DNA of 64,000 nt. It comes from Mobula hypostoma (taxonomy: Eukaryota). The notes beneath the pieces were generated by a model. The model searched no databases, had not been told where the DNA came from, and saw nothing but the letters and a program-made list of their open reading frames with translations. This document shows positions 1 through 64,000 of the stretch, one piece after another (the first letter of the stretch is position 1; each line of letters starts with the position of its first letter). The translations under genes were made by a program, and so were the position numbers. The stretch is from positions 9,672,001 through 9,736,000 of the forward strand of contig NC_086097.1 of the NCBI RefSeq assembly GCF_963921235.1, in the 5' to 3' direction.

Positions 1-583
1 GGAGTGTGACTAAACCATGGAAGTCAACATGGCCACAGATCTCTTAATGATAAAGCCATGGTACTCTGGCAAGTATTTCTCATTACCTCCCTTAGCAATA
101 TGGTTTAATAAGAAAGTCAAAGATGTTATATTGCAATCATAAAACTGCCAAGTTGATCCAAGGAAGAATGACCTATATCATTAAGGCCACTTTAGTATGG
201 TTAATGTCATAACATTTGAATATCTTTTGAACATGGTTTAAGCATTACTCAAATTTCTACATTTTAGTAAAATTATCTCTTCTCAATTATATGCTGTAAT
301 TTTTGATAACGTTCTTTGCCATCAATGTTTAATAGAAATTTGAACAAAAACTCATTTATTAAGATTTACTTGAACGATGATGTTTAAATGGAATTTTTTC
401 AATCTTTGGCGGAACTAAAGAGCTAGTCAGCTGGAGAGATATATTCTGAATATATTTTAATTCAATATTAACATAATTTTCTTTCCTGACATTTTTACCA
501 CTGCTTCTGAACAATTATCATATTATCTGCCTATAATCCAGTGAACCTACACATTGTTGTATGTCCTTTTCTCCCTATTTCAG

Positions 584-683
584 ATAAGTTGAATTGAAAA
601 ATTCTTTTTACCCGCATGGTGAAGAGATGACCTTTAATGAACAATTGCTTACAGCTATTTTTAAAATGAAATACAGAAAGAAG
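584..683 (+). pseudogene. Pseudo-exon of the plus-strand RGS-like gene
   Basis: Acceptor tgtccttttctccctatttcag and donor AAG|gtaatt. Reads *VELKNSFYPHGEEMTFNEQLLTAIFKMKYRKK. Confidence 0.6.
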
Positions 684-974
684 GTAATTTAAAGCTTGTA
701 TGCATGTCTCTGATGACATCAAACTCTAAAAGGTTAAATTGAATAGAGAGGTTCAAGGAACAGAGAAAGGATTTCAGCATTTCTTTTTAAATAGCCAATT
801 TTACTAAAAATGCAAAGAACAGGATCTGGAGTATGTCACAAAGCCCTTCAATTCTGTCTGCCATTCAGTGAAGTCAATGCAAGCCTCTTTCCTGTCCTCA
901 ATTTCTATTTAATTCCCATAGTCCTTGATTCTCCAAAAGGTTAAAACTCTACATGTGGTGTCTTTGAGTGGCAA

Positions 975-1830
975 ACCATATAGCATTCTTACTGGCAGCA
1001 TCACCATCTGGAACGGGTGGCTACTGCGCCGGATCGAAGTAAGCTGCAAAGAATTGTGAACTTAGTCAGCTCCATCGTGAGCACTAGCCTCAGTAGTATC
1101 CAGGACATCTTCAAGGAGCAATGCTTCAGAAAAGTGGCATTGATCATTAAGGACCCCCATCACATTTCTTCCAACCATTGTGTGAAACACAATAGTACAC
1201 ATAGCATGCACTACACACAATAAGAAAGTTAGGATAAAATCTACAGAAGAGTTATGCATAAATAAACAAATTAAAGTGCATAAGTTAAATATTTTGAGGT
1301 AGAGAGCAGATTACCCTTCGAATTCAATGAAGCAAAGACTCCAGAAGCCTAATGGCTCGGAGGAAGAAACTGTTTCCTATTTTGACCATTCTTGTTTTTA
1401 TGCATTGGTCTCTCCTGCCTGATGGTAGAAAGTCAAAGAGGATGCTGGATGGATGGATGGGATATTTAATAATACTAAGGGCCCCTGTGTATGCAGCGCT
1501 CCTGATAAATATCCTGATAGATGGTAGGGAGACTTCTATGATTCTTTCAGCTGTACTTGCAGTCCTTTGTTGAGATTTCCAGTTTGATGTTGGCTACTCC
1601 CATACCAGGCGGAGATGCAACTTGTCAGGACACTCTCAGTAGTGCTCCTGTAAAATTTAGTTTAGAAGGGGGAAGGGGAATCTCGCCTGCCTGAATCTCT
1701 TTTTGAAGTGGAGGTGTAGCTGTATCTACTTGCTCAGGGAGGTGACATTACGGGACCAGGTGAGCTCATTCATGGTGCGAACTTCTATAAACTCGCTGTA
1801 GTTAACTCACCCTACGGAGCCTTACTGATG
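975..1830. mobile_element. Two degraded Rex1/Babar-type LINE 3' fragments (+ ~975-1180, - ~1190-1830)
   Basis: RSKLQRIVNLVSSIV...IIKDPHH remnant in ORF 1017..1223, and an opposite-strand remnant with a LINE 3' tail. Confidence 0.55.
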
Positions 1831-2498
1831 ACACCAAAATCTTGCAAAACATTTTAAGAGTTTTTTTTTCACCGCCTGTAAAGCCCAGGGTTCAGTTTTA
1901 TTTTTTAAGGCAATTACTTGATAGTTACTTTAGAGTTCAGCTAAAATGCTCTTTCTTGTAACTTGTTTTGGAAAAATAACCCTAAATCTGTCAAGCCCAA
2001 GCTTCCTGAAGAATTCAGATTGTCACTGTACCCTGTCAGTTGATGTGTGCAAATGAATTATTAGATTCTCAAATCTGAGCTTCTAACTTTGCTTCTTGGA
2101 ACTTCAAGACAGTAATGCCATCTGCATTTAAAATAAACTGTATCCATTATAGCTCTGCATAGTTACCCAAGGGGTTGAAACATCTCTGTAGGAATGTATT
2201 CACTCTTGTCATTTTGAAACTTTCACCCTAATTTCTCTTTAACTCTTAAATTTATAATGAGCAAATTCTTCAAGTCGCAAATTCAAGTTAATCATAATGG
2301 CTAGCTTTTATTGTGTGGAAATCTTACATTCAGAACCAGAGATTTTCCAATAATCCTTAACATAAATGGGAATTGTGCACAAACATTGCAAGGTAACTCA
2401 CTGCATTGATTATTACAGAATATTTGTTTTTTTTAATTACAAGAAAGTAAACAAAATGTGCTTACAACTAAAAAAAAGGTTTATGTGTCTTTTTCCAG

Positions 2499-2926
2499 GA
2501 AGCTTGCAAATAATTTAGAAAAAAACGTTAAATTCCAAATGAATTAAAACTTTGACACTCATGCTATAGATAAAAGGGGAAAAAACGGAAGCCTCAGATT
2601 ATTCTCACTTCATGGATTTTTTAAGGTGACACTGCTTTGTCAAATAAGAGATCCTGCAACTTTATTTTGCATTAAATAATGCCAAATTTATCCCTTAGTT
2701 ACTTTCTATTTACTAGTATGAAATTAGTTTAGACAGAACAGAATTAATTCAAATCTCCTCCCAGCACAGATTTAACATCTAATGGCTCTTTCACTTCTTC
2801 CCTGTCACACGCTCTCTTCGATCTTCTCCTTGTGTGAATCAAAGAGAACTCAAAAGCTGACAACTCTCATATGCAACATTTTGAATCTCACAGATCACTG
2901 AAAAAAATTAAATCAGAAACAAAATA
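2499..2926 (+). pseudogene. Two pseudo-exons (2499-2625 and 2765-~2926) joined in phase 2
   Basis: Acceptors ttttccag and ctcctcccag, donor AG|gt at 2626. The joined reading is ...IKTLTLML*IKGEKTEASDYSHFMDFLSTDLTSNGSFTSSLSHALFDLLLV*IKE..., like RGS helices 3-4. Confidence 0.6.
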
Positions 2927-3081
2927 AGAGTTATACCAGCACTGCAACTTGACATATATTCATGTACAATTCCCGCAGATTTATTAAAGTTAAGGCTTTA
3001 AACTAAAGTGTTATTTTGTTATTGATCACACAATATGAACTGTACATTCAAACACCAACAAGTCAACTAGAACTCCAACAA

Positions 3082-3319
3082 CAGGAATTCTGCAGATGCT
3101 GGAAATTCAAGCAACATACATCAAAGTTGCTGGTGAACGCAGCAGGCCAAGCAGCATCTATAGGAAGAGGCGCAGTCGACGTTTCAGGCCGAGACCCTTC
3201 GTCAGGACTAACTGAAGGAAGTTAGTCCTGACGAAGGGTCTCGGCCTGAAACGTCGACTGCGCCTCTTCCTATAGATGCTGCTTGGCCTGCTGCGTTCAC
3301 CAACAACTTTGATGTATGT
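3082..3319. mobile_element. Penelope-like pLTR fold-back insertion with hammerhead ribozymes
   Basis: 100-bp inverted arms at 3114-3213 and 3220-3319 (one mismatch, 6-nt loop). 17-bp TSD aactagaactccaacaa at 3065-3081 and 3320-3336. Confidence 0.9.
3224..3259 (+). ncRNA. Minimal type I hammerhead ribozyme (mirror copy on the minus strand at 3174-3209)
   Basis: AGTC-CTGACGA-AGG(GTCTCGG)CCT-GAAA-C-GTC-GACT: stem I AGTC/GACT, conserved CUGANGA and GAAA cores, GUC cleavage triplet and a palindromic vestigial stem III. This is the type known from PLEs. Confidence 0.85.
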
Positions 3320-4866
3320 AACTAGAACTCCAACAAGCTTCCAAAGCCTTCTCATTTTCTAATCTCTGATCTATGACAGATGTTAAAGTGTATAACCCTT
3401 CCAATACATTCAATGTTGCCATGACTAAAAGACTTGCTCCCAGGAGCATTTCGTTTGCCTCCGAGAGGCTAATGCGTTGCAAGCGCTGCCGTCTTACCAC
3501 CTGATGTGGGAAGGATAAGGAACTTTCAATAATGCCGCTGTACCATTAGGAGATAACAGTACCGACAGCAGAGCAATAGATGAGGTTTACATGAACCTCA
3601 ATAAGGATTTCAATTAGGTCCCAATTGTGGAATGGCGGATTAAACTCCATGGGCTGAATGTCCTAATTCTGTTCCTATGACAAATCGCACAAATGGCAAG
3701 AAGAACATCAATTCCCAAACCCCCTCCCCTCCCCCCCGCTGTCATTTGCATGATTTGTTTTTTAGCACAGCTGCGATTTGATGTTTTCCTTTGAACAGCT
3801 TCGATGAATTTATTTTTGTTTCATGGCTGTCTGGAAAAGACGAATCTCAGAGTTGTATACAGCATACATTCTTTGATAATAAATGTACTGTGAACTTTGA
3901 ACTTTGGTCTTATGAACGAATGACCTAAAATGTTAGGCTCATAGATCCAGGGTTATTTGGCAATTTGAATCCAAAATTGGCTCAGCAATAGATGGTAGAG
4001 GGTAAGGGTACAGGATTTCGTTTTTGTAAATGGTTGCCTGTGACTAGTGATGTACCACAGGGGTTCCACAGGGATTGGTGCTGGGACTTTTGCTGTTAGT
4101 AATACTTTTAAATGACTTGGAAGTAGGTGGTATGATCAGTCAGTTCATAAGTGACACAAAGATTGTTGGATTGTTGAAAGTGGAGATGTAGTCTTAGGCC
4201 TCAGGATGATATGATGTGTTTGTGAAATCAAATCAAATCAAATTTAATTATCATGCTATGTTTTGTAAGTTCAAAACATTAATCTAATTCAAAGGATTTT
4301 GTATTTCATGGCGTATTTCGAAATATATAAATAAGTAGATCGAAGCAAGGAGAGGCAGGGATGAAATGCAAACCATAATAATAAAATCTATAATTTATAC
4401 TAAGAAGTAAATATAAATTTAAATGAGAAAGTGAATTTAAATATGCAGTACAAAAGGAGATAAAAGAAAGTAGTGAGGTAGTGCTCATGGGTTCAATGTC
4501 CATTCAGAAATCAGATGGCAGAGTGGAAGAAGCTGTTCCTGAATTATTGGGTCTGTGTCTTCAGGCTCCTGTACATTCTCCTTAATGGTAACAATTAGAA
4601 GACAGCATGTCCTGGGTGATGAAGGTCCTTAATGATGGATACCACCGAGCAAGCAACAGGCATTAACAGAGGTGGCAAACAATTGCTATGTTTAATACTG
4701 GCACATCCGTCGGGAGGGAATAGATGGATATGAATCACGTTCATGAATTTAATTTGACGATATGACCATTGTAGGCCAAACGGGCCATTTCTGTGCTTTT
4801 TTTTGTTCAATGTCTGAAACGTGATTCCACATGGTGCAGTGCAGATGTAAGCAGTTGGTGGATTGA

Positions 4867-5188
4867 TCAAGCCTCAGTAAAAAACATCCCACTGCCATAA
4901 TAATCCAAATCTCTACACCTGCTCCTGAGTACCCAGTATCACTGTTGGTAAATGAAATCTGTCACATAGTTTTCAAGAATCTTGATGGTGGTATGCAGCG
5001 CAACGTCTCGCCCAGCGCTCAGAGAGATGCCATCACACTTCTGGTAAGAATGCAAAATCCATGGAGAACTAAAATCGGTCAAGAATGAAATCCTTATTCC
5101 AGAATGCAGCAGGGAACCCATTGTCTGTTGTAAACGTTACAACAGAACATAAACTGAAAGGAAAACTTGAAGAACCTGCTTGTGCAAT
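4867..5188 (+). pseudogene. Pseudo-exon encoding the C-terminal half of an RGS-like domain
   Basis: SSLSKKHPTAIIIQISTPAPEYPVSLLVNEICHIVFKNLDGGMQRNVSPSAQRDAITLLVRMQNPW matches the RGS P..V.L...I...L......AQ..I..LL pattern. Frameshift near 5085, possible donor at 5189. Confidence 0.65.
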
Positions 5189-5299
5189 GTACGTTTTATT
5201 TTATTGTTTTATTTTCCATGACACTCTGCTGTGCAGCAATGTCACTATAATATTTCTTTGCCTGGATAAGAAGATCAATTAAGCTTGTTCAATCAGTCA

Positions 5300-5730
5300 A
5301 TCAATCAAGATTGTTTAATGTCATTTCCAGCACACAATTGTAAAGCAGAGCAAAATAATTATTACTTTGGATCTGATTTAGCACAAAAAAAACACAAGAA
5401 GATGAAGAACACAATGATAAACAAAACACAATAAATATAAATACATAGAATAACTTATATACATAGATTGATTGTATGTCCATAAAGTTTCAGTTGGTAG
5501 AGGAGTGTTTGTACATAAGGTGACTCTGACAGGAAATGATAAAGTAGTGATGGTGGCTCGGTAAGTGGAAGTGTTGATCAGACTTACTGCATTGGAAACG
5601 TAACTGTTTTTGAGTCTGGTGGTCCTGGTGTGGATGTTACGTAGTCTCCTCCCTGATGGGAGTGGAATAAACAGTCCATGAGCAGGGTGGATGATGCTAC
5701 TGATCATCTTCCGGCACCTTTCTGTATAGC
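5300..5730 (-). mobile_element. Rex1/Babar-type LINE 3' end
   Basis: ORF 5378..5764 HPAHGLFIPLPSGRRLRNIHTRTTRLKNSY plus a 3' tail. Related copies at 61850-62660 and 42640-43980. Confidence 0.7.
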
Positions 5731-6339
5731 CTCGTGCCGGAGAAGCATCAGGCAGCTTTGACAACCGGTGAACTCCAGTGTGGAGGAGTCAGTCCGCAAG
5801 ATGCAATTTAATATGTAATCTTCAGGAGAAAATCTTGATAACATCTTTTCGAATGCTGATGAAGTCGAGCCATTACCTCCATCAAAGCATTATTGTTGTG
5901 TTGAAGATGGAACATGAAACAGACCTACAGCAGGTAATTCATGGTCTTGTAGCAAGAGTGCAGGTGAAATTACCAAAATGGAGCATTACATCAATACATT
6001 GTCATGAGTGTGATTTTTAGATCATAGAGTAAGCAAGCATCAGAGAAGATTAGAGCAATTTGGAAGGTGCCACAGCTGAGAGTGTTGCACATCTGAATAG
6101 TCGCCAAGGTGAGTATTGTCTCATCCTTTTTACGAGTGGTGTTGGGGCTTTCTAAATAGTGTCATCAATTAAATGCATTCTATTAATATAATAGAAGATA
6201 AGTACTGATTGTACAATACTGTAATAATTTTATGTTTTTTCACTACTTATTTAATTTAACTCAATATAATGCACAGTTTTTTCTACATTATCATTTATTG
6301 CATTGTACTGCTGCCAGTAATATTAAAGCTGATTCTGAT

Positions 6340-6809
6340 TCTGCGCTATAATGCTGCCGCAAAAATAAACAACACATTTCATCTCGTATGTGAGTGATGA
6401 TAGATCTGATTCTGATATGGGTCTCTATAGTGGACTGAAAGTGGGAAGGGGACAGGGAGAGGGAAATCATGGTTGGGAAAAGGGGAAGGGAAGGAGGGAG
6501 CGGGAATCACCAGAGAGACATTCTGTAATGATCAATAAGTAAATTATTTGGAATCAAATAAATTAATTGGTGAGTCAGGGCTGGCTGTGTCTCCACCTGC
6601 GCCACTCCCCTGACCCTGGCATTCCTTCTCTGCAACTTCTCCCACATCTCTCCCGCAATGCCCCACCCTTGCCATCCCCAACATCTTTTGCTACTGCTTA
6701 ATTTACAAACTCACTCTCCCCTCCACTCCACATTGACAAATACAGTGCTGTGGAAAAGTCTTGGGCACCCTAGGTATATATATGTGCTGAAGACCTTTGC
6801 ACAGTACTA
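6340..6809. mobile_element. Partial copy of the composite Tc1-ended non-autonomous element
   Basis: Shared ~420-bp body plus a palindromic Tc1-TIR mini-element at 6743-6809. Confidence 0.7.
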
Positions 6810-6833
6810 TGCTTCCTGTATGCATTTTTATAG

Positions 6834-6997
6834 GAATTAAATCTGCTTTTGAAATTAGAGCAAAATATAGGATTAAACAGAATGAAGAATATTTGATTTT
6901 TTAAGAGTAGTTTGCAAGGAAACTGCAAAGAGAAGGAAGGAGATGGTGCTTGTATGCCTTTGGCATGACTTATTTGCAAGTGTTAAAGGGAAATGAG
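6834..6997 (+). pseudogene. Pseudo-exon encoding the N-terminal half of an RGS-like domain
   Basis: Acceptor gcatttttatag and donor GAG|gtacag. Reads IKSAFEIRAKYRIKQNEEYL/FFKSSLQ/...VCLWHDL with frameshifts. Confidence 0.6.
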
Positions 6998-7061
6998 GTA
7001 CAGGGACAGAATCGTATCAGAGGATGACAATTAACTTCATTTTACATCATACCTTTAACTA

Positions 7062-7861: not shown

Positions 7862-8009
7862 TAATTCATGTCCTCTTATGCTAAATTATTTTAACATGAA
7901 TTTTTTTTGTATTTCGACAATAAAGAGTATTGAGTCACAGAATAGTACAGCACAGTACTTTTATTGTTATTAAAATGTATTACTATTATTAAACACAATT
8001 ACATAATTA

Positions 8010-9438: not shown

Positions 9439-9439
9439 C

Positions 9440-10460
9440 GGGACTGGGAAAAAAGAGATGAGAAGTCAGAGCAAGAAGACGAGGGGAGGGAATGAAGAAG
9501 TACAAAATAGTAGGTCATAGGTGAAACCAGATGAGGGGGAAGGGATGAAGCAAAGAGCTGGGAAGTTGATTGGTGGAATAAATAAAGGGCTGGAGAAGGG
9601 TGAATCCGATAAGAGAAGATCATGGACGAAGGGGAAGGAGGAGGAGCACCAGAGAGAGGTGATGGGCAGGTAAGGAGATAAGACGAGAGAGGGAAACAGC
9701 AATGGGGAATGTTGAGTGGGGAGGGTAATTACCAGAATTTCAAGAAGTCAGTGTTCATGCCATCAGGTTGGAGGCTACCCGTATAAGAAGTTGCTCCTCC
9801 AACCTAAATGTGGCCTCTTCACGGCAGTAGAGGAGGCCACGGACTGACATGTCAGAATGGGAATGGGAAGTAGAGTTGAAATGAGTGGCTATCAGGAGAT
9901 CTTGCTTTTTCTGGTGGACGGAGTGTAGGTGCTCAGTGAAACGGTCTCCCAATCTACATCAAGTTTCACTGATACACAGGAGGCCACACTGGGAGCACCG
10001 GACACATTAGATCAGTGGTCCACAACCTCCGGGTTCTGGACTGATACCGGACCGCGAAGAATGCAGGGGTGCAGCGGTGGCCGGGACGCACCCAGCACAT
10101 CTTTAAGAAAAAAGCCGAAATGAACGAGCTAATTAATTAGGTGCCGCCCGGCACGTAAATGTTGGCCCAGATCGGAGGCGATTGCCAATTGCGTTGCCTC
10201 TGATCTGGGTCGACATTTACGTGCCGGGTGGCACCTAATTAATTAGCTCGTTTATTTCGGCTTTTTTCTTAAAGATGTGCTGGGTGCGTTCCGGCCACCG
10301 CTGCACCCCTGCATTCCTCGCGGCAATGTGTCGGTTCGCGGCCCAGAGGTTGGGGACCACGGCAGTAGATGACCCCAACAGACTCGCAGGTGAAGTGCTG
10401 CCTCACCTGGAAGGACTGTTTGGGGCCCTGAATAGTAGTGAGGGAGGAGGTGTAAGGCGT
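9440..10460 (-). mobile_element. Penelope-like element fragment (GIY-YIG C-terminus plus part of the pLTR)
   Basis: ORF 9755..9952 GDRFTEHL...ATHFNSTSHSHSDM, homologous to 13856..14182. Confidence 0.85.
10013..10362. mobile_element. hAT (Buster/Charlie-type) palindromic MITE inserted in a PLE
   Basis: Ends cagtggtccacaacctc / gaggttggggaccacgg, nearly the whole 350 bp is an inverted repeat, and the 8-bp TSD cattagat/cagtagat fits nnnTAnnn. Confidence 0.9.
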
Positions 10461-11667
10461 GAGAGAGAGAAAAACAGAGGTGAATTGTTACTGGAAATTA
10501 GAAAAATCAGTGTTATTTTCTCAAGAGATGATTGAAATGAATTGAGCTGAACTGAATATGCCTGGACCCTTGATTTTGTGTTTTATATTCTGTGTTTTTG
10601 CTCATTCTTCTTCTTTGCTGTTTGCTTTTCTTTCCTGCAGGTTGGGGTAGAGAGGTTGGTGTTATTCTTTAAACTGGTTCCAGGGTTTTCTTTGTTTTGT
10701 GGCTAACTGTGGGGAGACAAATTTCAGGGTGTTCTATATCCTGCATACATGCCTTGATAATAAATGTACTTTGATTCAAGATTTCCAGCGTCTGCAGAGT
10801 CTCGCTTCTCCATTTTGCAAAGTTCACCTAGGGTCATAGAAAAGTACAGCGCAGAAACAGGCCCTTCAGCCCATCTAGCTGAACCATTTAAATTGCCTTG
10901 TCTCATCGAACTGCACCTGGACCATAGCCCTGCACGGCCCTCCCATTCTATTTTAATGAGCTCTGGTCTTTAAAAGTGCAACGGATCACTGAACACCCCA
11001 GATGATATTTTTGTACCCAATGCAAACACAAAAGGCAGGTATCACTGCAAATGCTCAGCAGGTCCAGCAGTGTCTGTGGAATGTTAATATTGCAGATCTG
11101 GGGCCCTTCATTCGATGAAAAGTGTGAATGTGTGTTAGGGTAGGTTGGATAAGTGCAACAAATGGGGGCTTAATGATTAAAATGGCCATGGTGAGCTGAC
11201 GGGCTTGTGTGGTGTATTTAGTATTTGAGAAATCTCATAAAGATGTTGTGGATTTAGCATTCTTGTTCATTTAAATAATTCACTCCAGGTTATATGTAAA
11301 AAATTATGAATTACATGTATCATAATGCTACGTACATGCCTCGCTTAAAGTAAACAGGAAGTTAGACTCACATTTTAGACTCCCATGTCTTCCTTTGATT
11401 TAGTTTAATGTTTTGAAGTTACAAAACATAACATTGGAGATGACAGATTTTTAAAATGATCCTGAGACGACTATTGACCAGAAGAAGTACAGTGGGATGT
11501 TCAAACTAAAAAACAATGAATGAAACAAGGAACAGCGAGTTAAAAAACAGCCCATCACATTCAGAGATGGACGTTAAGAAAAGCAGTGTAGCACATGTTC
11601 TTCAGAAGGGAAGACATGATTGAATATTTTTTAAAAAGTCAAAAAACAGAATAATTTATGGGTTCAC

Positions 11668-11892
11668 AAACAAGAGAAAATCTGCAGGTGCTGGAAATCC
11701 AAGCAACACACACAAAATGCTGGAGGAACTCTGCAGGCCAGGCAGCATCTATGGTAAAGAGTACAGTCGACATTTCGGGCTGAAACCTGCCTGAAGAGTC
11801 CTGCCAAAGGGTTTCGGCCTGAAGCCTCAACTGTACTCTTTTCCATAGTTGCTGCCTGGCCTGCTGACTTCCTTTAGCATTTTGTCTGTGTT
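11668..11892. mobile_element. Older PLE pLTR fold-back inside the Gypsy 5' region
   Basis: Imperfect inverted arms of pLTR sequence with degenerate hammerhead cores. Confidence 0.75.
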
Positions 11893-12378
11893 TCCCTATT
11901 TCACAGGTTCATAAAGAATGAGTATCAGGTGATAATAATCATTAAGGAAAAAACCAGGAATGGCAGGTTATGTCAGAATAATTGAACCGTTGATTACGAA
12001 AAAGATAACTGGAATATATATACTGAGCAAACTGAATAGTAAATTGAAGCAAGTGAAATAACCAATAAGAAACAAGTACCAATTTTGCAGAGTACATTGG
12101 GTTTAAAGGCATACAGTTTGCTTCAAAGTTTAACTCCTCCAACCAAACCATCAGAAATGAACTTAATGATATTGTAAAAGTAATGCAGAAACATTTTGAA
12201 GCAAAACCTAAAGCAGAATGCTTTAGGTTTCATAAGCGGAATCAAAAGGAACAGGAGTCCACTTCAGCATATGTGGCTGAATTAAAGAGATCATCTGAGC
12301 ATTGTGATGGCCTTAAATATCTACTGAGAGATCGTTTAGTTGTTGGAATCTTACAAGAAAGCGTTCAAAAATGGCTCC

Positions 12379-13037
12379 TCAAAGCTGCTGTGCAGGTTGA
12401 CAGTGTGTTAAGAAGGTGTGTGGTGTGTTAGCATTCATCAACCGTAGGATTGAGTCCAAGAGCTGTGAGGTAATGTTACAGCTATATAGGACCTCGGTCA
12501 GGCTCTATTTGGAGTACTGTGTTCAGTTCTGGTCACCTCGCTACAGGAAGGAAGTGGAGGACGTATCTTATGAGAATAGGCTGACTGTACTTGGCCTTTT
12601 CTCCTTGGAGCGACAGACGATGAGATGTGACCTGATAGATGTGTATAAGATGATGAGGGACATTGATCATTGATCATGTGGATAGCCAGAGACCTTTTCC
12701 CAGGCTAAAATGGCTAACGGTGGGGGGCGGGGGGCATAGTTTTAAGATGCTTGGATATAGGTACCGAGGGTATGTCAGGGGTAAGTTTTTCCACACAGAC
12801 AGTGGTGGGTGTGCGGAATGCACTGCTGGTGTTGGTGGTGAAAGCAGATACAATACGGTCTTTAAGATCCTCTTAGGTAGGTACATGGAGCTTAGAAAAT
12901 TAGAGGGCAATGTGCTAGGGAAATTCTAGGCAGTTTCTAGAGTAGGTTACATGGTCGGCACAACATTGTGGGCCGACGGGCCTGTAATGTGCTGCAGGTT
13001 TCTAAGTTCTATGTTCTATGTTTGATGTTCTATGTTC
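12379..13037 (+). mobile_element. CR1 LINE 3' fragment inserted in Gypsy gag
   Basis: LEYCVQFWSP in ORF 12416..12673 and a (ttctatg)n tail. Gag resumes after it. Confidence 0.9.
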
Positions 13038-13467
13038 CTAATTGAAATGCAGCAAATTTAGAAGAGCAGTTGAAATTGCTGTATCAAACAGAGACACAAC
13101 TGAGCTGCAGTCAGGAATGAAAGTGAACGTGAACCAAATTGCAGCGTCTAAACAGAAAGCTGCCTGGCCAAGAAAAATTGTGTTACCATTGTGGCAGGGG
13201 CTCGCATAAACCAGACCAATGCAGATATAAAGCTTAACTTGTAACAAAGAAATGTAACAAAGTCAGACACATACAAATAGCATGTTGGGCAGACACAAAT
13301 AAATAGACTGCACAGGGAGGAGAAAAAGCTAAAAAGTCAAGTTGCAGTTTCAACAAGAGCATTAATCTGCATGTTGTTGATGAAAAATGTGATCTTGATG
13401 AGAGTGACACAGGACTGAGTACCCTTGAGATTTACACTGCGAAAACTAACAAGAGACAAGCAACATA

Positions 13468-14420
13468 CATCAAAGTTGCTGGTGAACGCAGCAGGCCAAG
13501 CAGCATCTATTGGAAGAGGTGCAGTCGACGTTTCAGGCCGAGACCCTTCGTCAGGACTAACTGAAGGAAGAGTGAGTAAAGGATTTGAAAGTTGGAGGGG
13601 GAGGGGGAGATCCAAAATGATAGGAGAAGACAGGAGGGGGAGGGATAGAGCCAAGAGCTGGACAGTTGATTGGCAAAGGGGATATGAGAGGATCATGGGA
13701 CAGGAGGTCCGGGAAGAAAGACAAGGGGGGGGGGGTTGACCCAGAGGATGGGCAAGAGGTATATTCAGAGGGACAGAGGGAGAAAAAGGAGAGTGAGAGA
13801 AAGAATGTGTACATAAAAATGAGTAACAGATGGGGTACGAGGGGGAGGTGGGGCCTTAGCGGAAGTTAGAGAAGTCAATGTTCATGCCATCAGGTTGGAG
13901 GCTACCCAGACGGAATATAAGGTGTTGTTCCTCCAACCTGAGTGTGGCTTCATCTTTACAGTAGAGGAGGCCGTGGATAGACATGTCAGAATGGGAATGG
14001 GATGTGGAATTAAAATGTGTGGCCACTGGGAGATCCTGCTTCCTCTGGCGGAAAGAGCGTAGATGTTCAGCAAAGCGGTCTCCCAGTCTGCATCGGGTCT
14101 CACCAATATATAAAAGGCCACATCGGGAGCACCGGACGCAGTATATCACCCCAGTCGACTCACAGGTGAAGTGATGCCTCACCTGGAAGGACTGTTTGGG
14201 GCCCTGAATGGTGGTAAGGGAGGAAGTGTAAGGGCATGTGTAGCACTTGTTCCGCTTACACGGATAAGTGCCAGGAGGGAGATCAGTGGGAAGGATGGAT
14301 CAGGGGGGGGCGAATGGACAAGGGAGTTGTGTAGGAAGCGATCCCTGCGGAATGCAGGGGGGGGGGAGGGAAAGATGTGCTTAGTGGTGGGATCCCGTTG
14401 GAGGTGGTTGTTTGCGTTTA
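13468..14420 (-). mobile_element. Penelope-like element: GIY-YIG endonuclease plus pLTR with hammerhead
   Basis: ORF 13856..14182 FTCESTGVIYCVRCSRCGLLYIGETRCRLGDRFAEH...RLEEQHLIFRLGSLQPDGMN. Hammerhead on the minus strand at 13523-13558. 17-bp TSD aagagacaagcaacata at 13451-13467 and 14421-14437. Confidence 0.93.
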
Positions 14421-51950: not shown

Positions 51951-52110
51951 AGTAGTTCAACCAAGTAATTTATTACTGATGGATTTATGTCTGCTGAACA
52001 CATGGTCATGACCACTTCCTGCAGTTCCAACCAGAATGTCAATTTGAAATGGTTCATTTACAAATAAGGTAACAATTTAAGTAAAAATTAGTAGAGATTA
52101 CATTCTTGCT
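51951..52110 (-). pseudogene. RGS-like pseudo-exon with the L-x-FWL-E motif
   Basis: LTFWLELQE at 52042-52016 and a gtaagt donor at 51950-51945. The 5' boundary is approximate. Confidence 0.65.
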
Positions 52111-53419
52111 GCTTTATAAAATGCAGAAGCTTTGAAATGAATTCTGACAGCTCACTTGAAATTATTATTGATAATTATTGTGAAATATGCACACAAAAGA
52201 AATACAGATACCTTAGACATTTATTTCCTACATATGCTGTTCATTTATAATTGGTTGCAACCTTAATCATGGCAACAGGCTAGCAATAAAATGATCATTG
52301 CTCCTTTTATGGTCAAAGGTTGTTTGAGTGCATTTCACAGCTAATTAATTACCTTTGAATTGCAGTTGCTGTTCTGCAAATAATTACTTCATCCAAAAAG
52401 CAGGAAGATAACTTACTCTTATAGCATTATTCCGAAGCACTGTGACAAATTTCTTCAAAGGAAGACTTAGTTGCACTTATCATCTGTAAACTTGCACTCC
52501 ATCCATCCCCGCTTCCTCATTCTAGCTTCTTCCACTCCCTCCAACCAAATCCCTTCCCACCCGCTTTCCAGTTCTGATGAAGAGTCTCAGCCCAAAGCAC
52601 TGACTGTTCATTGCTCTCCGTAGATGCGATCTGACTGCTAAGTTTCTTCAGTGTTTTGTGTATATTGTTCTGGATTATCCACATCTACAGAACCTCTTTA
52701 TGTTTATACATTTGAAAGCCCCTAGAACACACCAACAATGGATTTTTTTTTAAATCATTGAGTTTCTCACACTGCTCTATCTAATTTTGTACACCTCCAT
52801 TCAAGTTCCTTCTCAGTCTCTTCTGTTCCAATGAAAATAAGCCCAAACTGTCAGGTCTGTTGGAGATATTCAGTCATTCAGTACAATGCAATGACTTCAA
52901 AGGTCAAAGTTCCAAGTAAATTTATTATCAAAGTACAAACATGTCACCGTATGCTACCTTGAGATTCATTTTCTTGCAGGCATTCACAAAAGAATCAATG
53001 AGAAACCACATGCAACAAAAGTGGACCAACAACCACATGCAAAAGACGACAAACTGTGCAAATATAAATCAGAAAATAATAATAATAGTTATAAATAAGC
53101 AATAAATATCAAGAGAATGAGATGAAGTGTCCTCGAAAATGAATGCATAGATTGTGGGAACAGTTCAGTGATGGGATGAGTGAAGTTATCCCCTCTGGTT
53201 CAAGAGCCTGATGGTTGAGGATTAATGACTGTTCCTGACCTGGTGGTGTGAGCCTTGAGGTTCCTGCATCTTCTTCCTGATGGCATCAGCAAGAAGAGAG
53301 CACGGCCTGGATTGTGGGGGCTCTTGATGATGGATGCTGCTTTCCTGTGACAGCACTCCTTGTAGATTTGTCAATGATAGGGAGAGCTTTACATTTTGTG
53401 CTGTATCCATTACATTTTG

Positions 53420-56059
53420 TAGGCATTTCCATGCAACTGAACATAACATCCCAGTCGAGGAGTTTGAGTGCCATGGATCAGGAGTCTCTGAACTACTTCA
53501 GCAATATTTTTCCTAAGGTTCATTGAAGATCTATTCCAAAACACGTCAGTTTATAATAATGTTTAAAAAATTAGTCTGTGCCAACAACCACAGCCCTCCA
53601 AGACCTCTTTTTGCTTTCTTTTGAAAGACAAAATCATCTCTTACAAAATAAAGGAGGACATAAAAAATAGAAAACACAACCTTTTGATCAGACCAAACTG
53701 CATTCAAACAGTGAAACAAACTGTTTCTGTTTCAGCTAAGTAATGTGTTCTGATGGATGGTAATCAACCGAGAAATCTATTCGCTCTCCACAGATTCTCC
53801 CCTCTCCTCCTCCCCTATTGTGACATTTACCGGTAGTATTGTATACAAAAGGCTCAAAGTATTGCTGAGGATCCCTAACACCCACCCACAATCTCTTTGA
53901 CCCACTACCATAGGATAGGAGGTACAGGAGCATCAGGGCTAGGACTGGCAGACTGGGTAACAGCTTCTTCCCTCAGGCTGAGAGACTAATGAATACCCTG
54001 CCAACACTGAGGTCTCGTTACTAGGACAGCAAGTTGATTACTTGACTGTTTACTGTTTATCTGATAGAAGTTTATAAGATTATGAGAGGCATAGATAGAG
54101 TAGACTGACGGTTTATTTTTCCAAGGGTTGAAATGTCTAATACCAGAGAGCATACATTGAGGGTGAGAGGGGCTAATTTCAAAGCAGATGTGGGGCAATT
54201 TTTTTTACACAGAGAGTGGTGGGTGCCTGGAATATGCTGCCTGGGGTGGTGGTTGAGGCAGATACATCAGGGACTTTTAAGAGATATTTACGCAGGCACA
54301 GGAATGTGAGGAAGATAGAAGGATATGGACATTGTGTAGGCAAAAGAAATTAGTTTAGTTGGCCATTTTATTACTAATTTAGTTGGTTCAGCACAACATT
54401 GTGGGCTGAAGGGCCTGTTCTCGTGCTGTACTGTTCTACGTTCTCTGTTCTAGTATATAGCTAAGGTGCCTAAGACCTTTGCACAGTACTGCAGTAATTT
54501 TATGTCTTACATTCTACTGCTGCCACAAAAAATACTGACGTGAGGATAAACCTGATTCTAATATGGGTCTCTATTGTGGACTGAGAGTAAGAAGGAGGAA
54601 GGGAGAGGGGAATCACGGTTGTGAAAAGGGAAAGAGAGAGAGAGAGAGGAGGGAGTGGGAAGCACCAGAGATGCATTCTGTAATGATCAATAAACCAATA
54701 GTTTGGAATCAAATGAACTTGCCTGGTGTTTCAGGGCTGGTTGTGTCTGTATCTTCGCCACCCCCCTGCTCCAACACTCATGCTCTGCCACTCATCCTGC
54801 ACCCCTCCCATAAGTGCTCCATTCTCACCAGTCCCAATAAACTTTGCTCCCATCATATTTATAAACTTTGTTTCTGCTCCACATTGACAAATACACACTG
54901 CACAGAAGTGTTAGGCACCCTAGTTATATATATGTCCCTCAGACCTTTGCACAGTACTGTAGAACATAGAATAGCCCAGCACAGGATACAGATCCAAATG
55001 AATTAGTAACCAAATGGCCAACAGAACTAATCTCTTCTGACTACAGAATGTCCATGTCCCTCCATTATCCTCAAAGTCGTGCACCAATCTAAACATCTCT
55101 TAAAAGACTCTATTGTATCTGCCTCTACCACCAGCCCAGGCAGCTCATTCCAGGCACCCACCACTCTGTGTAAGAAAAACTTGCCCCTCACATCTCCTTT
55201 GAATTTACCCTCTTTCATCTTAAACACATGCTCTCTGGTATAGACATCCCAACCCTGGGAAAAAGATACTGTCTGTCCACCCCAGTCATAATTTTATAAA
55301 CCTAATGCAATACTCAAGATGTGACCTATATAGAGCTTCATAAATCTGCAACATAATATCCTGACTTTTGAACTCAATCCCTCAGCTAATAAGGGTAACC
55401 ATACCTTGTGGCTGTAAGCACTTGCCTCTTCAATTCTTTTTTGAAATCATTCCCTGTCACCTTAAATCAGCAGTTTCCAACCTAGGGTCCACAGATCGCT
55501 CAGGAATCCCTGCCTTAAATGCATGCATTCTTGCAGGTTTTAATGATCATCCAGAATTTTGGGTCTTTCCAACTAAGACATAGTCTTCCTCCATCCAACA
55601 TTCGAACACACTGCAAAGCAACAAAAGAGCAGCCAGGTATCTCTGAAAGAGAGCACCATGAGATGATTTTCAGTGTAGGACCTCCTAGTTCCATATCTGA
55701 TGCTCCATTTTCTGCCAGCTCGATCTCCCTACTGAGTGAATGACACTTGCAGCATTTTCTCATCAAAGCACACAGATCAACTGGCTGACTCCCAAGCTTT
55801 GCAGAAATGATGCTTTGGTTTCCTTTGGCTCTGCAAGCTAATAAGGAAGAGAAGAGAAGAAGAACAGCCAAGAAACATTGCTCAGTTTAATTCTGCTCTT
55901 TGTTGATGTTCAACAAGGCTCTTTCTCTGTGAAAATGGAATCAAACAGTCATTTGTTCTTTTGGCTCAGTTTTCTTGGGCTTTGGTTCACCCGCCTTGTA
56001 TGAGTGCCAGCTTATATTTTGTATCTTGGTTGTTCACTTCATGCAGACGTGTTTGACTG
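53420..56059 (-). pseudogene. Pseudo-exons 56059-~55515 and 53639-~53420 forming an RGS22-like domain
   Basis: ORF 55515..55871 ends ...KDPKFWMIIKTCKNACI. The next exon, after a pyrimidine-rich acceptor, begins DDFVFQKKAK. This resembles the FW.EV..YK..C...D..V.QKK motif I recall for RGS22. Confidence 0.6.
54060..55415. mobile_element. CR1 (+, 54060-54451), composite Tc1-ended element (54451-54959) and CR1 (-, 54961-55415)
   Basis: CR1 C-terminal motifs on both strands (ORF 55027..55227) flanking the shared composite body and TIR palindromes. Confidence 0.8.
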
Positions 56060-56398: not shown

Positions 56399-58014
56399 CG
56401 GTGGCATGCAAAAGTTTGGGCACTCCGGTCAAAATTTCTGTTACTGTGAATAGTTAGGTAAGTAGAAGATGAACTGATCTCCAAAAGGCATAAAGTTAAA
56501 GATGAAATATTCTTTTCAACATCTTAAGCAAGATTAGTGTATTATTTTCGTTTTGTACAATTTTAGAGTGAAAAAAGGAAAGGAGCACCATGCAAAAGTT
56601 TGGGCACCCCAAGAGATTTGAGCTCTCAGATAACTTTTACCAAGGTCTCAGACCTTAATTAGATTGTTAGGGCTATGGCTTGTTCACAGTCATCATTAGG
56701 AAAGGCCAGGTGATGCAAATTTCAAAGCCTTATAAATACCCCGACTCCTCAAACTTTGTCCCGACAATCAGCAACCATAGCCTCCTCTAAGCAGCTGCCT
56801 TGCACTCTAAAAATTAAAATAAATGGTGCCCACAAAGCAGGAGAAGGCTAAAAGAAGATAGCAAAGTGTTTTCAGGTAGCCGTTTCCTCAGTTCGTAATG
56901 TAATTAAGAAATGGCAGTTAACAGGAACAGTGGAGGTCAAGTTGAGGTCTGGAAGACCAAGAAAACTTTCCAAGAGAACTGCTCGTAGCATTGCTAGAAA
57001 GGCAAATCAAAACCCCCGTTTGATTGCAAAAGTCCTTCAGGAAGATTTAGCAGACTCTGGAGTGGTGGTGCACTGTTCTACTGTGCAGTGACCCCTGCAC
57101 AAATATGACCTTCATGGAAGAGTCATCAGAAAAAACCTTTCCTGCATCCTCACCACAAAATTCAGCATCTGATGTTTGCAAAGGAACATCTAAACAAGCC
57201 TGATGCATTTTGGAAACAAGTCCTGTGGACTGATAAAGTTAAAATAGAATTTTTTGGCCACAGTGAGTAAAGGTATGTTTGGAGAAAAAACGGTGCAGAA
57301 TTTCATGAAAAGAACCCCTCTCCAACTGATAAGCACAGGGCTGGATTGAGCATGCTTTAGGCTTGTGTTGCAGCCAGTGGCATGGGGAACATTTACTGGT
57401 AGAGGGAAGAATGAATTCAATTAAATACCAGCAACTTCTGGAAGCAAACATCATATCGTCTGTAAAAAATCTGAAGGTGAAAAGAGGATGGCTTCTACAG
57501 CAGGATAATGATCCTAAACACACCTCAAAATCCACAATGGACTACCTGAAGAGGCGCAAGCTGAAGGTTTTGCCATGGCCCTCACAGTCTGCCGACCTAA
57601 ACATCATCCAAAATACGTGGATAGACCTCAAAAGAGCAGTGCATGCAAGACGGCCCAAGAATCTCACAGAACTAGAAGCTTTTTGCAAGGAAGAATGGGG
57701 GAAAATCCCCCAAACAAGAATTGAAAGACTCTTAGTTGGCTACAGAAAGCGTTTACAATCTGTTATACTTGCCAAAGGGGGTGTTACTAAGTACTGACCA
57801 TGCAGGGTGCTCAAACTTTTGCTTTTGGCCCTTTTCCTTTTTTGTTATTTTGAAACTGTAAAAGATGGAAATAAAAAAAGGTAATCTTGCTTAAAATATT
57901 AAAGAAATGTGTCATCTTTAACTTTATGCCTTTTGGAAATCAGGTCACTTTTTACTCACTTAGCTATTCACAGTAACAGAAATTTTGACCGGGGTGCCAA
58001 ACTTTTGCATGCCA
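56399..58014 (+). mobile_element. Near full-length Tc1 (IR/DR type) transposon with a dead transposase (~56777-57797)
   Basis: About 210-bp TIRs with internal atgcaaaagtttgggcac direct repeats and a left TA. Motifs GRPRK, VLWTD, QQDNDPKH, WPSQSADLNIIQN (catalytic E to Q) and GGVTKY*. Start codon mutated to ATA, with stops and a frameshift. Confidence 0.95.
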
Positions 58015-59805: not shown

Positions 59806-61849
59806 GGACCGAGGTATTTGACAATCTCCTTGCATTGCACTGGAGTGGTGGTCTAGGTTACTGTACTCAAGTTGTTATAACTGAATATGACCAAACTATC
59901 GCTAAAAGAGCAAGGTCCTAAAGCACCACTTTAAAAGGAAAAGAAGGTACTGGAGAAGTAAATAGATTTAGTGTGAAAACTCTTGAGTTTATGAGTAACA
60001 GAAGAGGTTATCATGCATACATCAGGATGTTCTTCATTGTCTACAGCTCTACATTCAATACCATCATCCCCTCAAAACTAATCAATGAGATCCAAGACCT
60101 TGGCCTCAGTATCTATTTGTAAAACAGGATCCTCAATCTCCTCACTTGCAGACCCTAATAAATTTGGATTGGCAACAACGTCTCCTTCTCAATCCTAATC
60201 AGCGCAGGTGCACCACAAGAACTTGTGCTTACTCCCCTGCTCTATTCATTTTATACTTAGCACTGTGAGGCTAGGGACCGCTCCAATGCATATTTAAGTT
60301 TGGTCTTTTTTCTCTTTTTCTGTATTTGCACAGTTTGTTGTCTTTTGCACATTGGTTGTTTGTTCATATTTGTTGTGTGCAAATTTTCTTTGGTTCTATT
60401 GTGTTTCTTTGTATTTACTGTGAATGCCTGAAAAATGAATCTCAACATAATATGTGGTGACACATATGTACTTTGATAATAAACCTACTTACAATATTAA
60501 AGACAATTGCAAGTACCAATGACAGAAATAAAGCAAAGAGAAGTAAATCAAAACTGGAGATATTGATGCAGAGATCTTGGACAGTTTCTGTGGATGGAAA
60601 TGGCACTGAAACAGAAAGGACTGAGACGAGAGAGAGAGAGCTGTCATTGCTCAAGACAACAAGCAATAATGACTGTCCATAAAATAAAACAAAAAACTAT
60701 GTAAGCATCATAAGAAGTTGTGACTTGGGTATGGCATGATTAACCTTTGGCTTGACTAGCAATGTGAAGTTAGTACCCGTTCAGAGGGGTCCATCTGTCT
60801 AGAATACCTGTTTTTTTTTTCCCCCACAAGCAACAGACACAGAACTCTGTATTATCTCAGCAGGTCAGGTATTATCTACGTCCAGTATTTTCCTCTCCAT
60901 AAATGCTACCTGACCTGCCGAATTGCTTCAGCTTTTTTGTGTGTGTTCATCAGGATTTCCAGCATCTGCAGAATCTCTTGTGTTTATTAACTTTTCCTTA
61001 TTCTGATCTTTCTAAAACTTCATATAAGTATAATTTTCAGTTTGACATTCTCTTCTGCTACATACTTTGAAAAGCTAGAATTTAAGACTATCTTCTGATT
61101 TAGTAAGTCATCTTAACCCACAAGTGGGAGGGTGCGTTTTCATCCAGTATCAAATTTTTAGAAATGTTTAAGGCAGGTCTGCAACCCACCAACCTGAGCT
61201 CATCAAAATTCAAAGTTCAAAGGAAATTTATTATCAAAGTACATATATGCACCATATAAAACACTCAGATTCATTTTCTTATGTGCATACTCAAAAATCT
61301 GTAAAATAACAACCATTACAGAATCAATGAAAGACAGCCCAACGTAGGTGATCAGCCTGAGTGCAGGAGTCAAAAAACTGCAAAAACACAAAAATAAAGG
61401 GAAATAATAATAGTGATAAAAATAATAAATAAGCAATAAATATAGAGAACATGAGATGAAGAGTCCTTGAAAGTGAGTCTATTCGTTGTGGAAACATTTC
61501 AATGATGGGACAAGTGTAGTTGAGTGAAGCTATCAGTTAAAATGTCAGTGTTTCCAAGATTCAAGATTTAAGATTGTTTAATGTCCAGATGGGAATAAAT
61601 GAAAATTAGTACCTCATATTCAGCCTGGATAGTCTACAAACTGATGGCATCAACAGTGAATTTTGCATTTTCAAGGAACCTGCTCCCCTTGTATCCCTTT
61701 TCTCTCTCTTCCTGATCTACCAAGATTATCCAGTGCCCACCCTATCACTCATCCCAATCCTCTATCACCATTTATCCTTCCCCTCCTCCACCCACTTCTT
61801 GTCCGTCACCCAGAAAATTCCTACCATTCTAGATTCAGAATCAAAATTG

Positions 61850-62660
61850 CTTAAAGTCTTTTCCAGCACACACGAGTAAAGCAGAATGAAATAATTGTTA
61901 CTCCAATCCAATGCAGCACAAAAAAACACAATACGATAAAGGACATAATGATAATATAAAAACACAGTAAATATAAATACATAAAATAGCTTCTGTACAT
62001 AGATTGATTGTATGTTCATAAAGTGATGCTAGGCACAGAAGTGTCTTTACATAAGGAGGCTGACAGGAAATGGTAAAATAATGGTGTTTGGAGATGTGGA
62101 TGTGTGGGTTAGTTGATGGGGGTGTTGATCAGCCTTACTGCCTGTGGAAAGTAACTGCTTTTGAGTCTGGTAGTTCTGGCATGGATGATATATAGTCTTT
62201 TCCCTGATGGGAGAGGGACAAACTGTCCACGAGCAGGGTGAAAGGGATCCTTTATGATATTCCTGGCCCTTTACCAGTACCATTCTGTATGTACCTCCTT
62301 GATGGCAAGTAGGCTGGCGCTGGTGATGCATTGGGCAATGTTGACTACCTGTTGTAGAGCCTTCCTCTCTGCTGCAGTGATACAGCATGTTATGATTCTC
62401 TGTATTGTGTATCTGTAGAAGCTAATAAGTATAGATGTGCATAGTCCAGATCTCCTCAGCCTCCTTGGAAAGTAGTGACATTGGTGATATGGGATATGTT
62501 CTAGGACCTTGATAGGTCATAAGAGGACAAGCTGTAGGTGATGGTCACTCATAAGAATTTGAAGATCTCAACCTTCTCAATTTCAGAAGTGTTGATGAAG
62601 ACAGGAACATGTGCACAGTCCCCTTTTCTGAGATCAAATGACCAGCTCTTCACAGTTTAA
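61850..62660 (-). mobile_element. Degraded Rex1/Babar-type LINE 3' part
   Basis: Homologous to 5300-5730 and 42640-43980. Confidence 0.7.
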
Positions 62661-62667
62661 ATATCAC

Positions 62668-62940
62668 CTTGCCAGTTGATGATTTAAAAGTATCTTTAAT
62701 TCAATATAATGTGGAATTCTCCGAAATATATTAGGCCGTCTTTTAAGAGCATATTTAGTTGACTCATTTTCCTTAAAAAAGGAACCCTGTGAAGTTTCAT
62801 GGCTGACGTATATGAGACTTCAGATCCACAGCTGCTTTGCCTCATGACCCCCACATGAAGGGTGAAACAGGATGGGCAGAATATGTTGATGAAGATCACA
62901 TTTTTGAATGATTTAAAACATCTAAACATCAAATGAACAG
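62668..62940 (-). pseudogene. RGS-like pseudo-exon
   Basis: Acceptor ...atgcttgcag and donor AAG|gtgata. Reads ...IQKCDLHQHILPILFHPSCGGHEAKQLWI*SLIYVSHETSQGSFFKENESTKYALKRRPNIFRRIPHYIELKILLNHQLA. Confidence 0.6.
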
Positions 62941-63047
62941 CTGCAAGCATATTAAGGAAGCAAAAATGAGCAAGCTCCAACAATTAGCAATCTAAATTCA
63001 TGACCTATTCCTGACATCCGAGTACACTCCATTCTTGTGCCAAGCTC

Positions 63048-63330
63048 GGGGCAGCACAGTAGCATAGTGGTTAGTGTACTTCATAGTACCAGCGACCTGG
63101 ATTCAATTCCTGTCGCTGATTGTAAGGAGTCAGTACGCTCTCTCTGTGACCATGTGGGTTTCCTCCATGTGCTCTGGTTTCCTGCACAGTCCAAAGACGT
63201 ACTGGTTGGTAGGCTAATTGGTCATTGTGAATTGTCCTGTGATTAGGCAAGGATTAAATCAGGGGAGTTACTGGATGGCACTGCTTGAAGGACCAGTAGG
63301 GCCTGTTCTGCACTGTATCTCAATCAATCA
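63048..63330 (+). mobile_element. HE1-like V-SINE (tRNA head, V domain, CR1-type tail)
   Basis: A-box tagcatagtgg, B-box gattcaattcc, V-domain tgggtttcctcc..gtgctc.ggtttcc...cagtccaaagacgt, and tail gggcctgttctgcactgtatctc. Confidence 0.82.
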
Positions 63331-64000
63331 ATTAATCAATAAATAAGTAATGCTTGAACATGCTCGGCCTTTCATGCTGTCCTTTAGGGTCAGTAATGAA
63401 TTATACAGGGATTTGTCCCAATGCACTGTGAAGAAGAGAAGTCCTCAGAGAATTGCAAGGCTGTTTTTATTCCAGCCATAGGCATGCACTATATGGGTCA
63501 AAATCTCCTTTCTCATTAGAAAAGATGTCCAGCTTAGACCCTTTCCGATCTTTAGCTATACAGGCTACAGTAGATATTCCGAGATTTAGTGGAATGCACG
63601 ATCTGATTTCACAAGAGATCCTGCAGATACTGGAAATCCAGAACAACACACACAAAATGTTGGAGGAACTCGGCAAGTCAGGCAGCACCGATGGAGGGAA
63701 ACGAACAGTCAATGTTTGGGGCTGATAGCCTTCATCAGGATGTATTAAATGTCATCTAGGTTTTGGAGATTTTTGTGCGGAGACTGCTTCCAAATTAGGG
63801 AGACTTTTGTCCCCCAGCTCTTCTCATAATTCCTCAGGCCATTAGAATCGCAGTCTGCTCCACTTTACAAGCAAAATCAACGATCGTATTCCAAAAACAC
63901 CTTTAAATCCAGTGATTACATTTATACCTTAACAAGAAAAGCTTGCAATTATATGGCACATCTTGTAAACTCAATATAATCTAATACCGGAGAGTAGTCA

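Follow-up and report, generated by a model that had tools for sequence, protein, structure and literature searches.

The question raised by this locus of Mobula hypostoma is whether the DNA between its transposons is what remains of an RGS gene, and of what kind. A sequence-only reading had proposed a very large locus of the RGS22/RGSL1 type, with 10–12 RGS repeats over about 25 exons, dead in this lineage and possibly intact in others. According to two papers, RGS22 has four RGS domains (PMC13443885) and is a radial spoke component without Gα contact residues (PMC13443885, PMC11779644). Pfam marks 4 RGS stretches on RGS22.

The window, meaning the whole 64,000-nt stretch analysed, is the forward strand of NC_086097.1 (GCF_963921235.1) from 9,672,001 to 9,736,000. 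It is transposon-dense, with remnants of CR1/L2, Penelope, Tc1, and other elements making up most of it and a self-matching share of 37%. When 13 ORFs were scanned with Pfam, 4 gave RT, RNase H, GIY-YIG, or DDE matches and there was one LINE-type ALKBH8_N match, such that the long ORFs with a Pfam match are all transposon-type; an Rfam scan gave 0 matches. The non-repeat DNA was delimited by hand into 45 blocks totalling 19,815 nt, among which 17–199, 584–683, 2499–2625, 4939–5933, and 52483–51951 have no matching repeat copy within the window.

Quoted motifs and their strands

The 11 peptides that had been quoted as RGS helix motifs (12 search strings) are each found exactly once in the window (Table 1). 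They divide by strand, 3 on the plus strand (52–6955) and 8 on the minus strand (63484–26218), a split that the earlier account did not mention. Because motifs occur on both strands, one unbroken gene is impossible, and the proposal of one very large gene conflicts with the strands unless it is supplemented by an inversion. One of the plus-strand motifs, KAMVLWQVFL, is read in a different frame of the same DNA as the candidate first exon.

Counted by class, strand, and side, the motifs reach p < 0.05 against 100 shuffles in 3 of 28 counts, one of these 3 on the unexpected strand; taken together, the motif classes do not rise clearly over shuffles. Of 14 unrelated prokaryote loci matched by a 10-codon RGS motif, not one is RGS (0/14). 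CLWHDL, QKKAK, and DSAQHLLSL lie within blocks that look like repeat copies found at other positions of the window, and from these resemblances transposon remnants appear to underlie at least one, and probably three, of the quoted motifs. For the CLWHDL block, the alignment to its repeat copy runs over 127 columns with a score of 29.7 vs 27.3 for the best of 12 shuffles, which makes a fragment of an old CR1-type reverse transcriptase likelier here than an exon. The near-shuffle counts, the repeat-like settings, and the prokaryote matches all favor the reading that there is no RGS gene here, with non-repeat blocks that descend from old transposons or are neutral DNA, and motifs that are chance six-frame readings. 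We regard that as possible, if doubtful, and as it stands the case illustrates the ease with which debris of old transposons can be mistaken for short helix motifs.

Candidate exons

Table 1. Candidate exons and motif-bearing blocks in the window, with the position of each quoted motif
Feature	Coordinates	Strand	Quoted motif (position)	Observations
Candidate first exon	17–199	+	KAMVLWQVFL (52)	ATG at 17; 61 codons, 2 stops; resembles RGS22 N-terminal ATD..LP motif; weak donor
Candidate exon	584–683	+		Strong acceptor and donor; 5 stops in phase-0 frame, 1 in another
Candidate exon	2499–2625	+		Strong splice signals; frame uncertain
Candidate exon end	4939–5043	+	SAQRDAITLL (5014)	35 stop-free codons; strong phase-0 donor; no acceptor found
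Candidate phase-0/phase-0 exon	5826–5933	+		36 stop-free codons; weak acceptor, strong donor
Candidate exon	6021–6108	+		Very strong donor, weak acceptor
CLWHDL block	6834–7015	+	CLWHDL (6955)	Aligns with CR1-type reverse transcriptase copy 45486–45612
Candidate exon	17974–18142	+		Strong splice signals; all frames broken
Candidate exon start	63790–63927	−		Moderate acceptor at 63927
CLWLE block	63430–63600	−	CLWLE (63484)	Profile z ≤1.5
EAKQLW block	62670–62940	−	EAKQLW (62843)	Profile z ≤2.3
Domain-3-like block	60990–61112	−		Resembles first third of RGS22 domain 3, z 4.1; without conserved tryptophan
KFWMII block	55490–55837	−	KFWMII (55559)	Within 123-codon open frame 55515–55886; no Pfam match
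QKKAK block	53500–53700	−	QKKAK (53623)	Resembles repeat copy 34657–34719; 28.4 vs 22.8 for best of 6 shuffles
Two candidate exons	51951–52483 (52483–52417; ~52156–51951)	−	KLTFWLELQE (52045)	GTAAGT donors
EDIFIHVH block	47481–47620	−	EDIFIHVH (47540)	No profile support
ALFYQL..HVAALL block	39700–39830	−	ALFYQL..HVAALL (39750)	No profile support
Candidate exon, 81 nt	27668–27748	−		Strongest splice pair of the minus strand
DSAQHLLSL block	26130–26290	−	DSAQHLLSL (26218)	Resembles repeat DNA 35787–35880; 29.3 vs 24.4 for best of 6 shuffles

Acceptor–donor pairs in the 45 blocks, taken over both strands, number 20 vs about 14.5 in shuffles. Hence the 25 or so exons are not shown, and for most blocks exon status is not above chance, which again suits transposon debris. 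The description of exon-sized blocks with splice signals does hold for 584–683, 2499–2625, and 17974–18142 on the plus strand and 27748–27668 on the minus strand. Joining in the correct phase is seen for 4939–5043 and 5826–5933, both stop-free and meeting in phase 0, although the acceptor at 5826 is weak. This pair and the several strong splice pairs speak against debris as the whole explanation.

The RGS22-like N-terminal motif (ATD..F..LP) at 17–112 scores 25.1, a value reached by 0 of 40 local and 3 of 150 block-wide shuffles; the score falls to 19.2, the null level, with the alleles of three relatives, and HMMER gives the motif 4.1 bits (E = 6.5). For the second N-terminal motif (W..K..LP), the best register lies at 584 and scores 0.1 bits. 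On the minus strand, the candidate exon with KLTFWLELQE is the top match of that strand for two RGS22 profiles and the second for a third, all within the control range. The domain-3-like block was absent from the sequence-only reading.

Every long reading of the candidate gene DNA carries stops and frameshifts. This fits the proposed death in this lineage, and such lesions are shared by at least one relative, X19, where the two stops at 106–111 are unchanged (39 of 41 substitutions listed). Compared with 584–683, X19 has 1-nt and 3-nt deletions producing a frameshift difference, and 1 of the 39 listed substitutions falls within 560–721.

The count of 10–12 RGS repeats could not be reproduced. 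Mutual similarity among the blocks is absent, with a best block-to-block blastp E of about 0.1 and no pairwise excess, in a comparison of low power for ancient repeats. The predicted paralogous exon pairs gave no alignment above chance, and same-role pieces submitted to MAFFT did not align on their motifs.

Searches for RGS similarity

The short helix motifs of the canonical RGS domain (FW/LW, KA..LW, AQ..LL) are present in the window, but PF00615 matches 0 of 65 candidate frames, scanned as single, unjoined, exon-sized broken pieces and hence at low power; the intact RGS22 control matches at E = 1.4 × 10−35. PDB searches of the candidate frames found no RGS match, and word-index searches of protein databases, covering proteins up to 2000 aa, found RGS for 0 of 567 and 0 of 364 candidates. 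With plus-strand 4939–7050 in one frame, a query missing the 5826–5933 exon, phmmer against 1.84 billion representatives gave one 44-aa match, to a repeat stretch. An atlas search with the ORF at 17–139 gave no usable match, and one with RGS22 returned only RGS22-type clusters. The intact orthologues suggested for other lineages did not turn up in these protein-database searches, which were weak and in two cases limited to 2000 aa.

RGS22 profiles were built from 38 RGS22 proteins, and the homologue set comprised 120 (P0003–P0122). RGS22 HMMs, tblastn, and spliced alignment on the window stayed at control level, with no single match above controls; the best spliced scores are 21–26 vs 18–32 for controls, and no exon model joined by hand exceeds 6.2 bits. 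The collinear protein or profile matches that were to check the proposal thus failed to appear with either RGS22 or PF00615. A codon-level spliced alignment was discarded for composition bias, its controls scoring above the window. Planted RGS22 orthologue domains score 42–178 at 10–20% decay and 19–44 at 30%, while the null does not exceed 28. Since planted fossils are recovered up to 20% decay and none was found, the window does not hold a recent RGS22 orthologue fossil, there being no domain-level similarity to RGS22 domains 1–4 at the scores expected of planted ones. All direct searches being negative is a further point for the absence of any RGS gene, but a distant paralogue would escape these RGS22 profiles, and against one the negatives are powerless.

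What does rise above shuffles is an aggregate. RGS22-segment similarity on the left-plus and right-minus strands, chosen after the motifs were seen, is 60.8 vs 37.8 ± 7.2, with 0 of 24 shuffles as high; with the 29 of 89 repeat-flagged tiles dropped it is 45.0 vs 26.2 ± 5.6, with 0 of 40 as high. Control values are 27.4 for the opposite strands and 26.7 and 29.6 for reversed sequence. The best chains on left-plus and right-minus (14.6 and 13.7) are above all 6 shuffles; those on the other two strand-halves are not. This strand-specific excess, persisting without the flagged repeats, is the main difficulty for debris alone, although old transposon reading frames could raise it: one of the three top-scoring tiles adjoins a repeat remnant. 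Another of the three is presumably an L2 remnant, by its look. The order of the segment matches does not differ significantly from that of permuted tiles (p = 0.13 and 0.73), and with motifs on two strands this rejects an RGS22 orthologue having N and D1–D4 collinear on one strand. The window shares with RGS22 (PDB ID: 9fqr_Ha), which is multi-exon with several divergent RGS-fold domains, a weak N-terminal motif match (17–112) and weak aggregate segment similarity; unlike RGS22, its pieces are broken, on two strands, and without a domain-level match.

A proposed pair of convergent dead genes and other readings

We lean, tentatively, toward two convergent, ordinary-sized, long-dead genes of the RGS22/RGSL1 family. 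They would lie tail to tail, one on the plus strand from 17 to about 18 kb and the other on the minus strand from 63.9 kb to about 39–26 kb. Each would have about 4–6 RGS-fold domains, the sum of which may be the earlier count of 10–12, and several quoted motifs would be chance readings of transposon debris. A pair of ordinary-sized genes accounts for the repeat count, with no new architecture needed. Such an origin is plausible for part of the non-repeat DNA, given the weak aggregate signal, the N-terminal motif match, and a putative RGSL1-like order, but there is no direct match and the order is not significant.

The family identity would most likely be RGSL1-type, going by the weak profile signal and the putative order. 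About a dozen blocks may correspond to segments of human RGSL1, and on each strand they would keep the RGSL1 order, starting from N-terminal motifs that RGSL1 shares with RGS22. Against this reading, two of the putative resemblances fell in blocks later found to be repeat-like. By its resemblance, 63790–63927 on the minus strand would likely lie close to the second gene's 5′ end. RGSL1 is a single gene in human, whereas the window would need two convergent broken copies. By analogy with RGS22, the most likely role of the living proteins would be that of non-catalytic RGS-fold scaffolds in motile cilia or in the flagella of sperm; the locus today would make no such protein. If true, the two-gene reading would mean that an RGSL1/RGS22-type gene was duplicated and both copies lost in a lineage of cartilaginous fishes, as its repeat types suggest, a small addition to the evolutionary history of ciliary and sperm proteins.

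One very large gene with 10–12 RGS repeats, later broken by inversion, or a giant with at least 7 repeats on the minus strand alone, we consider unlikely. Domain-like fragments do recur over 38 kb of the minus strand in an order unlike that of the four RGS22 domains, and proteins over 2000 aa were outside the word-index searches and the RGS22 homologue set. Against this, an extra rearrangement is required, the blocks have no internal repeat similarity, the minus-strand order is no better than permuted, and several of the counted motifs are repeat-like. A giant with 10–12 repeats is unsupported. A giant, if it existed, would give a family that was only lately assigned to the radial spoke an architecture unknown so far. 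Also unlikely is its wider form, an undescribed vertebrate RGS22-family gene encoding a long scaffold of cilia or flagella with 7–12 RGS-fold repeats, broken here by inversion and transposons and intact in sharks or other early-branching fishes. Neither a giant multi-RGS gene in vertebrates nor the loss proposed here is reported in the literature covered, which takes in few subscription papers.

The splice-bounded blocks could instead be exon remains of another gene, one for some other helical protein, their RGS likeness being generic. This would suit the good splice pairs whose open frames match no family and the best frame of 584–683, where the YP motif is not followed by the hydrophobic core that would be expected there. 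We consider it quite improbable: no other family matched either, and the N-terminal motif that was matched belongs specifically to proteins of the RGS22 type.

Possible resemblance to RGS22 and RGSL1

We tentatively favor, as the most economical explanation that still accommodates the weak positive signals, that two convergent, long-dead, ordinary-sized genes of the RGS22/RGSL1 family, most likely RGSL1-type, lie in the window. The reading frame that opens at the ATG at 17 (the ATG-17 frame) aligns to almost all of the RGS22 N-terminal motif, scoring 25.1, more than any of 40 local shuffles; 3 of 150 block-wide shuffles equal or exceed it, and the profile was 1 of 7 tried. The score drops to 19.2 with the alleles carried by three relatives, which may be ancestral or derived. 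Tiles were scored against 14 RGS22 segments. Taking the plus strand on the left and the minus strand on the right, a choice made after the motifs were seen, the summed similarity is 60.8 versus 37.8 ± 7.2 (89 tiles, above all 24 shuffles). Removal of 29 repeat-flagged tiles leaves 45.0 versus 26.2 ± 5.6 (60 tiles, above all 40 shuffles), with 27.4 on the opposite strands. The order of the matches is not significant, and old transposon frames may contribute to the excess. About a dozen blocks may also be similar to pieces of human RGSL1, following the order of that protein once per strand, each series presumably starting with the N-terminal motifs. These similarities are individually short, two lie in blocks that look like repeats, and pairs predicted to be paralogous give no alignment above chance.

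Direct searches and the reach of the RGS22 profiles

Pfam gives no RGS match in any of 65 candidate frames (20 + 2 + 43) spanning most candidate blocks, and window frames find no RGS match in PDB, where both RGS22 (9fqr_Ha) and some two dozen chains with a canonical RGS domain are present. Against these canonical chains intact RGS22 itself scores at most 20.6 bits. Word-matching searches of protein databases from the window (proteins up to 2000 aa, shared exact words needed) returned no relative, nor did a protein database search with one of the window's reading frames.

Of 33 metagenome loci covered by a short motif scan, 13 carry RGS22-type exons, and one of these 13 retrieved 127 homologues, all 120 listed being RGS22-type by name or score. 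With full-length, per-domain and pooled profiles built from 38 RGS22-type homologues, hmmsearch, tblastn and a spliced frameshift-tolerant aligner find nothing in the window above reversed or shuffled controls. The power of this search was measured with held-out sturgeon RGS22 domains, decayed and planted as three exons. They score 88-178 when decayed by 10%, 42-112 by 20% and 19-44 by 30%, whereas the null from 16 shuffles does not exceed 28; using a profile without the domain's own type, the scores are 19-48 at 10% and 19-27 at 20%. Hence the window holds no moderately old fossil of an RGS22 orthologue, while more distant paralogues, RGSL1 among them, are beyond the reach of RGS22 profiles.

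Among the scanned loci outside the window, L012 (203-543) has an RGS22 domain-4 exon followed directly by a partial tandem self-copy with its own donor, and L020 (1186-1527) is an invertebrate-type RGS22 locus without the domain-4-splitting intron present in L006.

Transposon content, motif strands and candidate exons

Chance motifs in transposon debris explain the locus nearly as well, and we regard this as a real possibility. The window is CpG-poor with 41% GC, 37% of it matches itself elsewhere within the window, and Pfam matches occur in 5 of 13 long ORFs tested, the matching ones being transposon-type. Its repeat types presumably resemble those of rays or sharks, and old repeat pieces were later recognised in some of the 45 blocks (19,815 nt) delimited by hand as not obvious repeats. 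Motif counts reach p < 0.05 in 3 of 28 cases (100 dinucleotide shuffles), one of these on the unexpected strand. The block of CLWHDL, a peptide quoted by the sequence-only reading, has a 127-column alignment to a CR1-type RT copy within the window, and those of QKKAK and DSAQHLLSL resemble other repeat copies there (a lead, 6 shuffles each). The quoted KAMVLWQVFL and the ATG-17 motif are different frames of the same DNA, and the two readings cannot both be correct.

One giant gene of 10-12 RGS repeats over about 25 exons, as the sequence-only reading had it, is unlikely and unsupported. The 11 peptides that it quotes all occur in the window, but 3 lie on the plus strand (52-6955) and 8 on the minus strand (63484-26218), and no single uninterrupted gene could encode both groups. 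Fossil exons of another gene are the least probable reading.

Acceptor-donor pairs number 20 versus about 14.5 in shuffles, and the only clear excess (7 versus 1.6) is on the plus strand at 11.9-25.8 kb, where part of the DNA looks to us like LINE tails. Some candidates look like real exons from their sequence.

Features of the window
Feature	Position	Strand	Remarks
RT + RNase H ORF	29031-30494	-	Pfam; 487 codons open; single, fairly intact LINE copy
GIY-YIG ORF (Penelope-type)	13856-14299		Pfam
DDE ORF	57333-57797		Pfam
RT ORF	40658-41128		Pfam
Candidate exon	584-683	+	strong splice sites
Candidate exon	2499-2625	+	strong splice sites
Candidate exon	17974-18142	+	strong splice sites
Candidate exon	27748-27668	-	strong splice sites
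Candidate exon pair	4939-5043 and 5826-5933	+	both stop-free, phase-0 join
Palindromic insertion	3065-3336		two 108-nt arms, 96% complementary; 6-nt spacer; flanked by perfect 17-nt direct repeat
MITE-like inverted repeat	10015-10360		165-nt arms, 88% complementary; 16-nt spacer; within another repeat
LTR-retrotransposon-like element, broken	11243-15910		gag- and integrase-like pieces from sequence; other repeats interrupt; type assumed
DNA transposon, broken, single-copy	37667-39588		no Pfam match in 3 ORFs; presumably hAT-like
DNA transposon, broken, single-copy	56610-57804		DDE_3 match (Pfam)
Stop-free frame, 123 codons	55515-55886	-	non-repeat DNA; no Pfam match; about 1 expected by chance

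The arm sequence of the palindromic insertion recurs across the window, including beside the GIY-YIG ORF.

Possible function by analogy, and age of the proposed loss

RGS22 is described as having four RGS domains without the G-alpha contact residues and as belonging to radial spokes 1 and 2 (PMC13443885), and in sperm it is described as contacting EFCAB5, AK8 and TRiC (PMC11779644). By analogy, RGS22 would be a guide to the role of the living protein. Literature listings show neither a giant multi-RGS vertebrate gene nor the loss proposed here. The two genes we favor would be an unconfirmed pseudogene pair of a known family, of low novelty; a giant gene, if true, would be more novel.

Contigs from four other organisms span 1-960, the stretch over which relatives were compared, at about 3-5% difference. 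In one relative, X19, the pattern fits an old, shared loss: it has no change at the two stops (106-111) among the 39 listed of its 41 substitutions, with 36 substitutions across the four alignments lying beyond those listed. Within 584-683 it also carries two deletions, of 1 nt and 3 nt, after which a 96-nt exon containing a single stop would remain.
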